Part shown: positions 8,947 to 48,283 of the stretch, in pieces
Layout: each line of letters starts with the position of its first letter
Numbering within the stretch: the stretch's first letter is position 1
Assembly: GCA_001563995.1 (NCBI GenBank)
Contig: LKMV01000001.1
Coordinates: 1 to 49,177 of the forward strand
Direction: 5' to 3'
DNA length: 49,177 nucleotides
From: Nanohaloarchaea archaeon PL-Br10_U2g16
Lineage (GTDB): Archaea > Nanohalarchaeota > Nanosalinia > Nanosalinales > Nanosalinaceae
The notes under the pieces: generated by a model
The model's database searches: none
Seen by the model: the letters and a program-made list of their open reading frames with translations, nothing else
What the model was told of the DNA's origin: nothing
Position numbers and translations under genes: made by a program

Positions 8947-10149
8947 CTAAGTACCACCATATAGAATCTTTATACCTTCTTCATCGGAATCCTCAGACTC
9001 AACCAGATTTTTGAACTCTTCATAGCTTTCCTCTATCTCTTCTTCAGGCTCATACTCATCTGTCTTCTTCTTAGCCGCCAGGCCTCCTGCAACTGCTCCT
9101 ATGGCTCCAGCAGCTAAACCTCCTGTCAAAGCTCCGGCAACCCCGCCTAAAAAGTATCCTGCAGCTGCTCCCGCAGCCGATCCAGCTGCCGCGCCACCTA
9201 AAGCATACTTGCCTAAATCTCCGGATAGGATATCCTCTACATCATCAAGCTCGATATCATCCGGGCCCAGCACCAGATCTCCATCTTCAAAGTAGTTAAG
9301 AAGGCTCTCATCCCCTAGCTCTGTGCAGAGGGCATCGTACTGCTTGATGGTTATATCGCTGGCATCCGCTATAGTATAGAACTCTTCCTCAGGCTCTTCT
9401 CCATGGTCGTGATCACAGTCACCATGATCGTGTTCGTCGTGTTCTTCACCGCTTTCTTCGTGATCCTCACCATGGCTTTCATCCTCATGGTCGTCACCGT
9501 GGTCGTGACCTTCTTCACCTTCGTCTCCATGTTCATGTTCCTCATCTTGTCCTTCGTCATGGCCGTGTTCCTCTTCCTCATGTCCGTCTTCACCGTCATC
9601 GTGATCCTCACCATGACTTTCATCCTCATGGTCGTCACCATGGTCTTCTCCGTTATCCGCTCCTCCGGAGTACTCAAACTCTATCTCAGGAGTATACCTT
9701 TCCATACCATCGTTCTCCATCCTGTAATGGAAGCTGTAACTGCCATCCTCCTCAGGCTTCAAAGTATGTTCGTACATACTGTCTCCTTCCAGAACTTCAA
9801 CGCCGTCATCCGTTATAAGCTCCAGATCATCAAGCTCTAGAATTTTCTGCTCTTTATCCAGATAACTTTCATCGTCAAATATCTTTGGATGGCCCGAAGG
9901 TTCAATCTCAAGATCTATCTCTCCTTCTGCTTCAGCCTCCGTATCATGCCAATGTTCCGTATCACCGTGTTCATCGCTGTTACAGAGATCTGTGCTTTCC
10001 CCGGAGCCGAAAAGTTCGTCAGAGAATAACCTAAGGTCCGCAAGCCCTAGAGTATCTCCTAGATCCAACTCTCCTTCTTCATCCTTATCAAGCTTCCTGT
10101 GGTAAAGGATTCTGTCCTCTTCCTTGAAGTCTATAGCTTCCGAGCTCAT
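8947..10149 (-). CDS. Acidic His-rich repeat protein with C-terminal Gly/Ala glycine-zipper membrane segment
   Basis: Central HGDDHEDESHGEDH-type His/Asp/Glu repeats are encoded by a near-perfect DNA direct repeat of about 40 bp (9467-9505 and 9609-9647). A GGAAAGSAAGAAAGYFLGGVAGALTGGLAAGAIGAVAGGLAAKKK glycine-zipper-like hydrophobic segment lies near the C-terminus. Confidence 0.6.
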   Translation of the reverse strand: MSSEAIDFKEEDRILYHRKLDKDEEGELDLGDTLGLADLRLFSDELFGSGESTDLCNSDEHGDTEHWHDTEAEAEGEIDLEIEPSGHPKIFDDESYLDKEQKILELDDLELITDDGVEVLEGDSMYEHTLKPEEDGSYSFHYRMENDGMERYTPEIEFEYSGGADNGEDHGDDHEDESHGEDHDDGEDGHEEEEHGHDEGQDEEHEHGDEGEEGHDHGDDHEDESHGEDHEESGEEHDEHDHGDCDHDHGEEPEEEFYTIADASDITIKQYDALCTELGDESLLNYFEDGDLVLGPDDIELDDVEDILSGDLGKYALGGAAAGSAAGAAAGYFLGGVAGALTGGLAAGAIGAVAGGLAAKKKTDEYEPEEEIEESYEEFKNLVESEDSDEEGIKILYGGT

Positions 10150-34622: not shown

Positions 34623-34852
34623 ATATGCATAATTTCATCGACCGAATAGTTACTACAAACTATAATAGTAGATATTCAGTTATTCCAACAGAATTAAGAA
34701 TGTTAATTCAACTTTAACAATGATAACTCTGATAGTTATCTGAGAAGGATAAAACGATGGATATGATATCGACATGATTCATGAGAATGTTTGACTATAG
34801 ATCAGCACGATGATTATCATCGACGATCATGGGATGTTAATTCGACTTTAAC

Positions 34853-34877
34853 AACCCCTTGGTTTCTTGTGGAAAAA
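34853..34877 (-). promoter_or_regulatory. ORB-like element C
   Basis: The reverse complement TTCCACAAGAAACCAAGGGGT fits the archaeal ORB pattern TTCCAnnnGAAAC plus G-string. Confidence 0.65.
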
Positions 34878-34939: not shown

Positions 34940-35215
34940 CCGATTTTTGTATAACACGGTTATAATTATTCAAGTTTTTTCAACAATTATTCAAGTTTTT
35001 TCAACCGAGTTGAAAAGTTGAATTGAAAAACGGATATAAAAGGCTTATTAGGCTCTAACTAGCTTTTCAACATGTTGAATAATTTGTTGAATAGTTGAAA
35101 AAGTGTTGAAAAACCGTCTTAGGGCATCATTTCTAGGATATAGAGCCTCTAAGTCGATTCAACACCTGTCAACAATGTTGAATAAACGGTTGAAAAGTTG
35201 AAAACATGTTGAAAA

Positions 35216-36202
35216 ATGGGGAAAAACGGGAGTAGAGGATTTTTATATTCAGAGGGACAATATCTGTCTGTAGGCATGGGATTTTTCAGCCGGATGGCAT
35301 TCTGGAAGAATAATGGAAACGATCAGGATAGAGATATGAACAATGGTAGGAATGTGAGTAATCCTGAGTTTGTGAATAGAGACTCTGATCAGGATCATTC
35401 AGTCCAGAAAAATAACCAGCCGCACAGAGAGACGGTTTCCCATAGATCCACCACCGATAACCCTCCCTCTGAGAAAGAGATTGGCCAGACAAAACAGGAG
35501 CTAAAGGAATTAAGAAACTTCACAATGGATAAGATGGATTCAGTGGCGGATGAGTTCGAGCAGATAAGGATGGAGGTCCAGGGCGTGAGGGATCAGAACA
35601 CCAAAGTCCAGGGAAAAATGTTCAATACTGTAGAAAAAGCGGTTAACAGGATTGACAAGCTAGAGAACAAGATAGATTCTCTCGAAAACAAAATAAATAA
35701 AACTAAAAATAGGGAAGAAGAAACCAAAAAGCTTGAAGGGCTAGAAGGAAAGATAGAATCTGTGGAAAAAACTCTTAAGTCCGAGATCAAACGTCTAGAT
35801 AAACAGAAGGTCGACGGACAGGACATAGTTAACATAAACATGTCTCAGGACGGCGGAAACAGCCAAAAACAGAGTAAAGATGCTAAAGTAGAATCAAAAA
35901 CTCAGAAAGAAGAGTTAAGAAGTAAGAGAAATAGTTCCAATAGTGATATAAGAAGTACACAGGATTTGAACCTGAAAAACTTAACCAAAAAGGAACAAGC
36001 AAAGATTAGAATCTTGGAAATGTTGAGAGAAGGGAAAGGAAAGACAGAGATAAGAGACAGTGTCGAGGGAGATATCTGTTCCAGAGAGTGGTTCTACAAG
36101 GCATGGGACGAGCTGGAGAGGCAAGAAGCCTACATAACCGGAAAGGGAGAAGCTTTAATACACCCTGAAGATTACAAGGAAGAAATAGTATCAAGAAATT
36201 AA
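35216..36202 (+). CDS. Coiled-coil protein with low-complexity N-terminus and C-terminal winged-helix-like domain
   Basis: Central heptad-rich region (ELKELRNF...NRIDKLENKIDSLENKINKTKNREEETKKLEGLEGKIESVEKTLKSEIKRLDKQ). C-terminus KEQAKIRILEMLREGKGKTEIRDSVEGDICSREWFYKAWDELERQEAYITGKGEALIHPED shows a helix-turn-helix-wing pattern. The start codon is uncertain, with alternative ATGs at 35276, 35296 and 35336. Confidence 0.55.
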   Translation: MGKNGSRGFLYSEGQYLSVGMGFFSRMAFWKNNGNDQDRDMNNGRNVSNPEFVNRDSDQDHSVQKNNQPHRETVSHRSTTDNPPSEKEIGQTKQELKELRNFTMDKMDSVADEFEQIRMEVQGVRDQNTKVQGKMFNTVEKAVNRIDKLENKIDSLENKINKTKNREEETKKLEGLEGKIESVEKTLKSEIKRLDKQKVDGQDIVNINMSQDGGNSQKQSKDAKVESKTQKEELRSKRNSSNSDIRSTQDLNLKNLTKKEQAKIRILEMLREGKGKTEIRDSVEGDICSREWFYKAWDELERQEAYITGKGEALIHPEDYKEEIVSRN

Positions 36203-37350
36203 CTTATTATCTTAGTTTTTTCTTCTAAATCATCTTTAGTCATCAACCAAATGCTTGAGGAATTAGCATTACCTTTTCTATCCATACCTACCAATATATC
36301 ACATCCTATATCTTCTGCTTTGCTTATCTTCTTATTGTCCAATTCTCCATCCATTAAAACAGCATAACCTTCTTCTACCTGCTCTATCTCATAGTCAAAG
36401 CTTTCAACAGGGAAACGTCTTTCAACATCCATCTCTGAGTTCATCACATAGACCGCTCTAGTTCCTATAAGATCCTCCATCTCTCCCTGAAACTTCTGTA
36501 TCTCTTCAGGAGTCAGCTCCTTGCTCTTTACCTCAGCAGTCTCTGTGTACTTCACAGGTTCCTTGTCTCTTAAAGCCTCATAAATTGTCTCTTTTCCTAG
36601 CTCCTCTACTTCCTTTTTATTAGGAGCTCTAGCCACATATTCAAGATCAATCTTACTTTTCATCTCTTTCAGTATCAGATCTCCTCCTCTGTCACCATCA
36701 AGAAATGCTGTCAGTTTCTTTTCCTCCGCAAGATCTACTAAATTATCCGGGACCGATGTCCCTCCTATACATACAGTATTCTTTACTCCTTTCTCCATCA
36801 AGTTCAGTATATCGGCTTTGCCTTCAACTATTACCACCTCTTCAGAGTTTTCTGCTTCAGGACCGGCTTTAAAGCCTATATAATCGGTTATCTCGGTAGT
36901 TCTTACCTCTTGCTTCACCTCATCAGTTATCTTAGCTGTCTCGGGTTTATCGTCCTGCATATCCTCTAGAAGCTGTTTTGCCCTCTTAACAATATAATCT
37001 CTCTTGGTTGTTCTCTGATCCTCTATCTCCCTGACTTTTATCTCTGCATTTGTAGGTCCTACCCTCTCAATAGTCTCAAGGGAAGCGCCTAAAAGTGCTG
37101 TTTCGGTTGAATCAAGCGAAGAAGGTATTTTGATAAATGCTTCAGAACATCCGTTACGGTCTTTAACCTTTACATCAATCCTGCCGACCTTGCCTCTTTC
37201 CTGAAGCTCTCTTAGATCTAGATCCTCTCCAAGAAGTCCTTCTGTCTGGCCGAAGATTGCTCCGACTACATCAGGCTTTTCTACCATGCCGTTAGACTCT
37301 AGCTTTGCTTTAACTACGTATTTTACCGAGTTCTGTGCTACTTTACCCAT
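36199..37350 (-). CDS. dnaG: Archaeal DnaG-type primase (Toprim domain)
   Basis: Toprim motifs VVIVEGKADILNL and FLDGDRGGDLI, with the overall architecture of archaeal DnaG. Confidence 0.85.
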   Translation of the reverse strand: MGKVAQNSVKYVVKAKLESNGMVEKPDVVGAIFGQTEGLLGEDLDLRELQERGKVGRIDVKVKDRNGCSEAFIKIPSSLDSTETALLGASLETIERVGPTNAEIKVREIEDQRTTKRDYIVKRAKQLLEDMQDDKPETAKITDEVKQEVRTTEITDYIGFKAGPEAENSEEVVIVEGKADILNLMEKGVKNTVCIGGTSVPDNLVDLAEEKKLTAFLDGDRGGDLILKEMKSKIDLEYVARAPNKKEVEELGKETIYEALRDKEPVKYTETAEVKSKELTPEEIQKFQGEMEDLIGTRAVYVMNSEMDVERRFPVESFDYEIEQVEEGYAVLMDGELDNKKISKAEDIGCDILVGMDRKGNANSSSIWLMTKDDLEEKTKIIS

Positions 37351-46732: not shown

Positions 46733-47938
46733 TTAAATGTAAAACTTTTCTTCTACTAGTTCATTGACCTGTCTCCTTATATCTTCGGAAAGGTCAACGC
46801 TTATCTGTCTTGTTCTACCGTATCTCCCCTTTGAAATAACCTTTGCGTTTATCACGCCAAGCATATCCAGCTCAGATATAAGTCCTGATACTCTTCTCTG
46901 CGTTAACTCGGATACCTCAACCTTCTCACAGATCTGTTTGTACTCAGAGTACACATCCCCTGTGGCAATCTCTTCCTCATCCTCTACCATCTCAAGGATT
47001 GTATAGAGTACAAGCTTCGAATGTTTAGGCTGAGAACGTACAGTCTCTACTATTCTATCCCTTTCAATCTTTTCCTGAGCTTTATCTACATGTTCTACAG
47101 TGATGATATTTTTGCTGGATCTCTCAGCTAGCTCCCCGGCTACCCTTATAAGATCCAAAGCTCTTCTAGCATCACCGTGTTCCTGTGCCGCAAGAGCAGC
47201 ACATTTGGAAATTACACCATCCTCCATACAGTTCTCTACAAAAGCTCTATCAGTTCTGTCCTTAAGTATCTCCCTAAGCTCTATAGCATTATAAGGCGGA
47301 AATATAATCTCTTCTTCCGATAGAGATGATTTAACCCTTGAATCCATATACTCAGTGAAGTTAAGATCGTTTGAGATACCAAGAATAGATACTTTAGTTT
47401 CTTTCAAATCATCGTTAATCCTTGTAAGGTTGTATAGAAACTCATCTCCTACCTTCTTTACAAGAGCATCTATCTCGTCCAATGCTATAATTACTACTCC
47501 TTTCTGTCCTTTTAAGGCTTCAAAGAATCTGTTATAGACTTCATCAGTTGGTAGACCTGTACTCGGTACTTCTGCTCCTAACTGTTCTGCTAACCTTGCT
47601 AAAAGTCTGTACTCGGTGTCAGCTACTTTTTTCATCTTACAGTTAATGTATAATATGTTAAGATCTACCTGTTCGTCATCAGCAACCTCTCCTAGCTGAT
47701 CTGTAACGTGTTTTGTAATAAGCGTCTTTCCTGTTCCTACTGATCCATATACAAATACGTTACTTGGATCATCTCCTCTCAGGCTTGGAGCAAGTATTGA
47801 TGCTAGATTATCTATCTGTTGATCTCTGTGTAATATATTTTCAGGCTTCCAGTTGGTGGTTAAAGCATCCTTGTTATCGAAAAATGATTCTTTTTCAATA
47901 TAACTTGAAAACTTTGATTTCAGGTTAGTTTCTGACAT
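46733..47938 (-). CDS. orc1: Orc1/Cdc6 replication initiator
   Basis: Walker A VYGSVGTGKTLITKHV, Walker B IALDEIDAL and a C-terminal winged-helix region. Confidence 0.95.
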   Translation of the reverse strand: MSETNLKSKFSSYIEKESFFDNKDALTTNWKPENILHRDQQIDNLASILAPSLRGDDPSNVFVYGSVGTGKTLITKHVTDQLGEVADDEQVDLNILYINCKMKKVADTEYRLLARLAEQLGAEVPSTGLPTDEVYNRFFEALKGQKGVVIIALDEIDALVKKVGDEFLYNLTRINDDLKETKVSILGISNDLNFTEYMDSRVKSSLSEEEIIFPPYNAIELREILKDRTDRAFVENCMEDGVISKCAALAAQEHGDARRALDLIRVAGELAERSSKNIITVEHVDKAQEKIERDRIVETVRSQPKHSKLVLYTILEMVEDEEEIATGDVYSEYKQICEKVEVSELTQRRVSGLISELDMLGVINAKVISKGRYGRTRQISVDLSEDIRRQVNELVEEKFYI

Positions 47939-48283
47939 TTTTTCCCACCGGTAAAACTTTCTTGTTCAGATTTATCGCCCCGTGTATTGCATTTGAAATG
48001 TAGGTTATAAATACCTTTCCAATCGAACCCGGGGTTAGTCGAATACACACCCCTTGATTTCATATGGAGTATAGAAAACATCTCCATCTACCGATATAAC
48101 AGTGTTATATAATATATCATTGTTATTAGAAGAAGAAATAGAATGGAAATATAGTTCCATAGGAAACCGAGGGGAGGAAGAACTTACAGTTTTTTACGTT
48201 AAGACAGCCGGGATGAAAATAACCCCTTGGTTTCACTTGGAGAATGAAGTTTGAAAAAGAAAAAAATTGTTGTAAGGTTGAAA
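47939..48283. other. Replication origin (oriC): three ORB elements flanking an AT-rich DUE, upstream of orc1
   Basis: ORB-A 48046-48069 is CACACCCCTTGATTTCATATGGAG and ORB-B 48221-48242 is AACCCCTTGGTTTCACTTGGAG; both read as TTCCA...GAAAC...GGGG on the minus strand. ORB-E 48155-48177 (TTCCATAGGAAACCGAGGGGAGG) has the opposite orientation. The AT-rich stretch 48070-48154 between A and E is a candidate duplex unwinding element. Confidence 0.8.

Follow-up and report, generated by a model that had tools for sequence, protein, structure and literature searches.

A predicted winged-helix coiled-coil protein from salt-lake Nanohaloarchaea, and the repeat array and origin recognition boxes upstream of its gene

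A gene in a Nanohaloarchaea contig from a soda-lake metagenome is predicted to encode a protein with a long coiled coil and a DNA-binding winged-helix (wH) domain, and a non-random array of short repeats lies just upstream of it. Our tentative reading is that the protein is a sequence-specific wH DNA-binding protein, that the array is its cognate site, and that the pair has a replication-linked accessory role. Most probably, the protein oligomerises through its coiled coil, occupies its own array in this form and regulates its own gene; gene and array are probably a self-contained DNA-binding module, which may be tied to replication control. The observations behind this reading are a fold prediction, the statistics of the array, the profile of presence and absence of gene, array and origin recognition boxes (ORBs), and the geometry of the promoter.

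The window, i.e. the whole stretch of 49,177 nt that was analysed, contains an open reading frame at 35216..36202 on the plus strand, position 35216 being the first possible start in the ORF listing. Judging from the alignments, the true start is almost certainly the ATG at 35276, because all homologs begin at the equivalent of M21 (P0002, P0003 and P0004 in the homolog alignment), and because a conserved TATA-like box is found inside the supposed first 20 codons. In the upstream alignment this box, TTTTTAT(A), was conserved in all four loci, 35–40 nt 5′ of the ATG. The original prediction placed the start of the gene at the last GTTGAAAA repeat, which was incorrect: in the window this repeat ends 25 nt short of the TATA box and 60 nt short of the start codon. 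The gene and its surroundings are then as follows.

35276..36202, plus strand: coding sequence with the revised start, 308 aa, MGFFSRMAFWK..., placed from homolog starts
35216..35275, plus strand: putative core promoter with a short or absent leader, formerly read as the first 20 codons (60 nt)
35241-35250, plus strand: TATA-like box TTTTTATATT, aligned in four loci
36199..37350, minus strand: gene of DnaG (Toprim), running towards the target gene, with the two stop codons overlapping; context, outside the module

The same tail-to-tail placement with DnaG was found in L002, L003 and L250.

From the sequence, an Asn/Asp-rich N-terminus, a central coiled coil of about 120 aa and a C-terminal wH-like module of about 70 aa had been proposed, and all of these were recovered. 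The N-terminal region is an Asn/Asp/Gln-rich disordered stretch, the centre is modelled as a single long helix of about 114 aa (AF2 pLDDT >90), and the C-terminal region, about 72 aa long, as three helices followed by a beta-hairpin and one more helix (pLDDT 86.7, pTM 0.77). The structure prediction of the C-terminal region that had been suggested as a check gave a wH fold, with a three-helix bundle, an HTH and a beta-hairpin wing.

35276..35308, plus strand: conserved N-terminal peptide MG[FIL][FIL]x[RF][LM]xFWK, with M1, G2, R6, F9, W10 and K11 invariant in three long forms
35471..35812, plus strand: central long helix, residues 66-179, one helix in the AF2 model (pLDDT 85-94)
35984..36199, plus strand: predicted wH domain, residues 237-308, with H1, H2, H3 (recognition helix CSREWFYKAWDELE), wing TGKGEA and a fourth helix

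Disordered linkers flank the central helix (residues 10-60 and 183-231). Its best heptad register has hydrophobic residues at 18 of 33 a/d positions, and residues 66-179 are presumed to form a coiled-coil oligomerisation rod. The wH domain is the best-conserved part of the protein (63-73% identity, versus about 40% overall), with a recognition helix that is near-invariant across the four long forms, all of which have the TTGAAAA motif in common. The family is less acidic (pI 5-6.2) than its neighbours (median 4.8); the domain itself is basic in P0003 and P0005 (pI 9.1-9.6) and has a net charge of -3 in the window protein. The wH model had the fold likeness of PadR, MarR and ArsR regulators, with the RPA32 WH as structural match of lowest rmsd, and no Foldseek match in PDB or BFVD had a significant E-value.

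The N-terminal peptide was also compared with known motifs. A PspA/Vipp1-like amphipathic membrane helix was rejected, as the hydrophobic moment of residues 2-12 is low (0.10-0.39) and Pfam gave no PspA match. Membership of the PspA/Vipp1/ESCRT-III group, to which the ‘MGxFxR’ motif had been a lead, was discarded likewise: neither the PspA_IM30 nor the Snf7 HMM matched, and the low moment does not support an amphipathic alpha-0. Read by eye as a PIP box, the peptide has its aromatic pair one residue out of register, and it is not proposed as such.

That the protein belongs to no recognisable family, as first suspected, was confirmed by profile searches of Pfam, NCBIfam, PHROGs and PDB. The first three returned coiled-coil noise only (CheZ, SMC, Rad50, tape-measure), no HTH family, PadR, MarR and ArsR included, was found at E<=0.1 in Pfam or NCBIfam, and the PDB search had nothing below E 0.02. 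An Orc1/Cdc6 initiator identity was rejected, since there is no ATPase domain and no family match (TIGR02928/PRK00411), and the contig's true Orc1 is encoded at 46733-47938. Two analogies of the original prediction did not extend to family membership. Against a WhiP/Cdt1-like protein stand the single wH of the model, the lack of a Cdt1-type match in Pfam or PDB and the lack of an ATPase; against a Rep protein, the single wH instead of two, the absence of any Rep_3 or other Rep match and a repeat unit of 8 bp at 8-12-bp spacing, not iterons of 17-22 bp.

An exhaustive profile search over 1.84 billion representatives revealed four long-form members, and a fifth, a contig-end fragment, brings the known long-form loci to five. 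A relative of 123 aa (P0005), whose recognition helix and wing differ from those of the long forms, is encoded on plasmid-like contigs of about 5 kb together with MCM or D5-type primase-helicase genes; its gene belongs to the conserved backbone of these small plasmids, in which the replicase module varies. P0006 was discarded as a false positive due to EIRDGVEGKVC repeats, and the genes that face DnaG tail to tail in SG9, Nanohalovita and JACOQA01, considered as divergent homologs, were unrelated. A contig scan with wH-domain patterns found L003 alone, one with coiled-coil peptide patterns found nothing, and no relatives were found in viral contigs. By these sequence searches, the family is a very rare orphan and an accessory module limited to one Nanohaloarchaea subclade.

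The repeats upstream of the gene are organised as follows.

34967..35216, no strand assigned: repeat array, three clusters with 18 TTGAA-core sites in total, consensus (A/T)GTTGAAAA(A)
34998..35016, no strand assigned: palindromic site pair TTTTCAAC-CGA-GTTGAAAA
35064..35081, no strand assigned: palindromic site pair TTTTCAAC-AT-GTTGAATA, the palindrome being kept in L001 at 9815-9832
34700-34720 and 34834-34854, plus strand: two copies of a 21-nt repeat, ATGTTAATTC(A/G)ACTTTAACAA, the second abutting the first ORB

The clusters are at 34967-35029 (four minus-strand, then three plus-strand sites), 35064-35113 and 35158-35216, the last two forming a 103-nt duplication, and spacing is mainly 8 or 10–12 nt. 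Among the 19 matches to GTTGAAWA in the 49-kb window (4.9 expected for the whole window), 12 fall within 34977-35215, and a total of 19 was reached in none of 100 shuffles. Similarly, TTGAAWA occurs 15 times in the target intergenic region, versus 0–1 times in each of 12 other intergenic regions, and there is no second site cluster in the 49 kb. By shuffles and intergenic counts alike, the array first noticed in the sequence is real and non-random. Two stretches, 34640-34720 and 34940-35000, are AT-rich (72-78% AT), and the 21-nt repeats adjoin the first of them. A search of the intergenic region against Rfam gave a sub-threshold snoRNA match only.

Arrays of TTGAAWA were present 5′ of all four long-form loci for which upstream sequence is available (4–15 sites, 20–35-fold enriched), with 14–35 nt between their end and the TATA box. 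Palindrome and spacers included, the upstream sequence can be aligned among the window, L001 and L002. The genes on the upstream side vary from locus to locus (M48 peptidase, tRNA-Thr/NicX, TetR), and the array is therefore tied to the target gene. In six syntenic Nanohaloarchaea loci that do not have the gene, there was no array (at most 1–2 sites per 250 nt) and no ORB-like box. The suggested phylogenetic profile thus bore out the co-travel of gene and array for the long forms (four of four with an array, six of six gene-less loci array-free), on few and related genomes, i.e. five long-form loci of which four have upstream sequence, incomplete in L002. It did not do so for the short P0005, upstream of which there is no dense array, only a TTCCCGA/TCGGGAA palindrome and three copies of AATTTTCT. 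When metagenome and viral contigs were scanned for DNA with three sites in tandem, the matches listed comprised more than 230 unrelated loci of low complexity or tandem repeats, none of which codes for a homolog by tblastn.

Between the first AT-rich stretch and the array, two boxes resemble sites of the initiator Orc1. The euryarchaeal ORB consensus is GTTCCAGTGGAAAC-AAA----GGGGG, and the first box fits its reverse complement (PMC1868953). The origin upstream of orc1 on the same contig served as reference.

34856..34876, plus strand: Orc1-type ORB CCCTTGGTTTCTTGTGGAAAA, by pattern match, with distal half GTGGAAAA
34922..34938, plus strand: second ORB CCCTTGTTTCGTCTGGA, 66 nt from the first and in like orientation
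46733-47938, minus strand: orc1 gene, about 12 kb from the target locus
47990..48260, no strand assigned: canonical origin upstream of orc1 (reference), with three ORBs and one TTGAAWA only
48051-48068 (plus), 48156-48173 (minus) and 48224-48241 (plus): the three reference ORBs, surrounding a stretch of high AT content at about 48080-48150

As they match both the consensus and the ORBs of the contig's own oriC, the boxes at 34856 and 34922 qualify as ORBs at the sequence level. Against 0.01 expected, the strict ORB pattern occurs five times in the window: in the two boxes here and in the three of the orc1 origin. ORB-like boxes were also found in L001 and L003, which with the window makes three of four loci, as called there by a relaxed pattern and not by an ORB consensus of their own genomes; relaxed matches there fall only in the intergenic region of the target. 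Two ORBs in the same orientation, with DNA of 72-78% AT on both sides, are thus present 12 kb from orc1. GC skew tracks gene orientation along the window and neither of the two switches at 35 kb, which argues against a strong active origin at this place. Moreover, most Nanohaloarchaea have neither gene nor array, which excludes a core origin function for the module. The earlier idea of an origin-associated factor gains from the two Orc1-type ORBs beside the array and the ORB-like boxes in L001 and L003; an initiator or origin function as such is putative.

A mechanism can be proposed from these elements. The helix of 114 residues would pair or bundle into a coiled coil, with one wH per chain on a disordered tether of about 50 residues, so that an oligomer could reach direct repeats at a spacing of 8–12 bp as well as the palindromic pairs (TTTTCAAC-N2/3-GTTGAAAA). 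Bound to 15–18 half-sites over 250 bp, with A-tracts roughly helically phased, it would form a large and probably bent nucleoprotein complex. This complex would end 14–35 bp 5′ of the TATA box and could feed back on transcription of a nearly leaderless mRNA. The replication-linked role would be that of an iteron-like accessory replicator or of a locus modulating Orc1, with plasmid ancestry.

Autoregulation could also be all that the module does. The protein would then be an ordinary autoregulated transcription factor, acting on its own promoter and perhaps on distant ones, and the ORBs either Orc1-dependent regulatory sites or incidental, with no part in replication. The placement of the array just 5′ of BRE/TATA in four of four loci is a typical operator or activator geometry, the fold is like that of the PadR, MarR and ArsR regulators, orientation and skew give no sign of an origin, and the gene is dispensable in most Nanohaloarchaea. 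However, 15–18 sites over 250 bp far exceed the needs of autoregulation and they make up the single site cluster in 49 kb, whereas the ORB in three loci, the coiled coil with its N-terminal peptide and the plasmid-borne relative are left unexplained. We consider such a limited role rather unlikely.

The proximity of the ORBs leads to another explanation, in which the array units are weak Orc1/Cdc6 half-ORB sites, forming a secondary origin or titrating Orc1, and the protein is not the binder, its wH being a protein-interaction module like that of RPA32, which recruits or tethers replisome components. Of the alternatives, it comes near to the origin-associated factor of the original prediction. 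Two bona fide ORBs are located 30–110 nt from the array, beside AT-rich stretches; a single base separates GTTGAAAA from GTGGAAAA, half of the ORB, and in L001 and L003 array unit and ORB half-site are the same; and the RPA32 WH is the lowest-rmsd match. Arrays of 13-bp mini-ORBs are bound cooperatively by Cdc6 in Methanothermobacter and Pyrococcus (PMC1904270). Such mini-ORBs, however, are dyads carrying both the TTCC and the GAA core motifs, and the array units are without the TTCC half and the G-string required for binding by Pyrococcus Cdc6 (PMC1904270). The units were rejected as mini-ORBs, having the GAA half only and no enrichment at the orc1-adjacent origin, where it would be expected under this explanation and where three ORBs are accompanied by one TTGAAWA. 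Direct binding by the protein is a simpler account of the co-inheritance of array and gene and of the conserved recognition helix, and we hold half-ORB sites to be improbable.

Least probable, and in our view very doubtful, is a centromere-like or tethering module, in which the protein would coat the array, as ParR coats parC or RacA ram, while coiled coil and N-terminal peptide anchor the origin-proximal chromosome region, or the plasmid in the case of P0005, to a partner or the envelope for segregation: the array lying 5′ of the gene whose product would bind it, a long coiled coil combined with a conserved terminal peptide, the relative in the backbone of small plasmids and the distance of about 12 kb from oriC would all suit it, but no ParA, ParM, TubZ or SegA-type NTPase gene is found beside the gene (window neighbourhood, L001, L003 and L004-L009), the peptide is not convincingly amphipathic, and the module is missing in most Nanohaloarchaea.

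Direct binding of the array by the wH protein with a replication-linked role is favoured because ORBs accompany the array, an ORB half-site and the array unit differ by one base, the module has an accessory distribution within a subclade, and a relative is carried by plasmids. An accessory, ORB-linked module, possibly derived from a plasmid, would fit these four features. A bolder version, which we judge unlikely, is that ORB pair, array and wH protein form an accessory replicator captured from a small plasmid, a DPANN counterpart to bacterial iteron replicons or to WhiP/oriC3. Replication at 12 kb from the main origin would there be fired, throttled or positioned by a protein that is not AAA+ and that acts with Orc1, or in competition with it, at half-ORB iterons. 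If the protein binds the array, the two make a compact pair of trans-factor and cis-array, directly testable, in a lineage whose DNA transactions are almost unstudied. The fixed association with Orc1 boxes, and a site one base off an ORB half-site, would then offer one of the few ways into the question of how factors other than Orc1 supplement or regulate archaeal origins, for which WhiP and UBP of Sulfolobus are precedents, and would bear on how plasmid replicator modules turn chromosomal. Even as a mere autoregulated transcription factor it would found a new orphan family, of modest interest.

Several known systems share part of this layout. A wH with an added dimerising helix or coiled coil is found in RTP, the replication terminator protein of B. 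subtilis, in the PadR family and in Sso10a of Sulfolobus. There is no sequence relationship to them (no Pfam, NCBIfam or PDB match), and here a rod of 114 residues carries the wH at the C-terminal end of a long disordered tether, with an additional conserved N-terminal peptide, and the presumed target is an array of 8-bp half-sites instead of one or two operators. In ParR/parC systems the fold of ParR is a ribbon-helix-helix; here the fold is different, no partner NTPase gene is present and ORBs are adjacent.

Clustered short repeats are known at the origins of Methanothermobacter and Pyrococcus (PMC1868953, PMC1904270). Two boxes fit the ORB consensus and the array unit resembles an ORB half-site; unlike ORBs and mini-ORBs, the units have neither G-string nor second dyad half, and the gene with which they strictly co-occur is not an Orc1 gene. 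In Sulfolobus, UBP is a sequence-specific protein that is not an initiator, binds the auxiliary origin motif ucm and acts on MCM (PMC12141716). As a nucleoid protein, UBP is abundant and beta-rich and has hundreds of sites, whereas here a rare wH coiled-coil protein is paired with one local cluster.

With iteron plasmids the locus has in common AT-rich DNA, initiator boxes (ORBs in place of DnaA boxes), direct and inverted repeats, a promoter and a wH gene, and its distant relative is found on small plasmids. Iterons of the RepA, RepE and pi type are 17–22 bp long and about 22 bp apart, and the Rep proteins have two wH and no coiled coil. In contrast to these plasmids, the present module is chromosomal, 12 kb from the main origin, and has no Rep_3 or other Rep match. 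At oriC3, an accessory origin of Sulfolobus, the gene of the non-Orc1 wH protein WhiP lies beside the repeats that WhiP binds; an extrachromosomal element is regarded as the likely source of oriC3, and WhiP is patchy and clade-restricted (PMC3607249). A non-Orc1 wH gene beside repeats, with a patchy distribution, is what we describe here as well. WhiP differs in its tandem wH and its similarity to Cdt1, and oriC3 in being Orc1-independent, whereas the nanohaloarchaeal module combines a single predicted wH with a coiled coil, next to ORBs.

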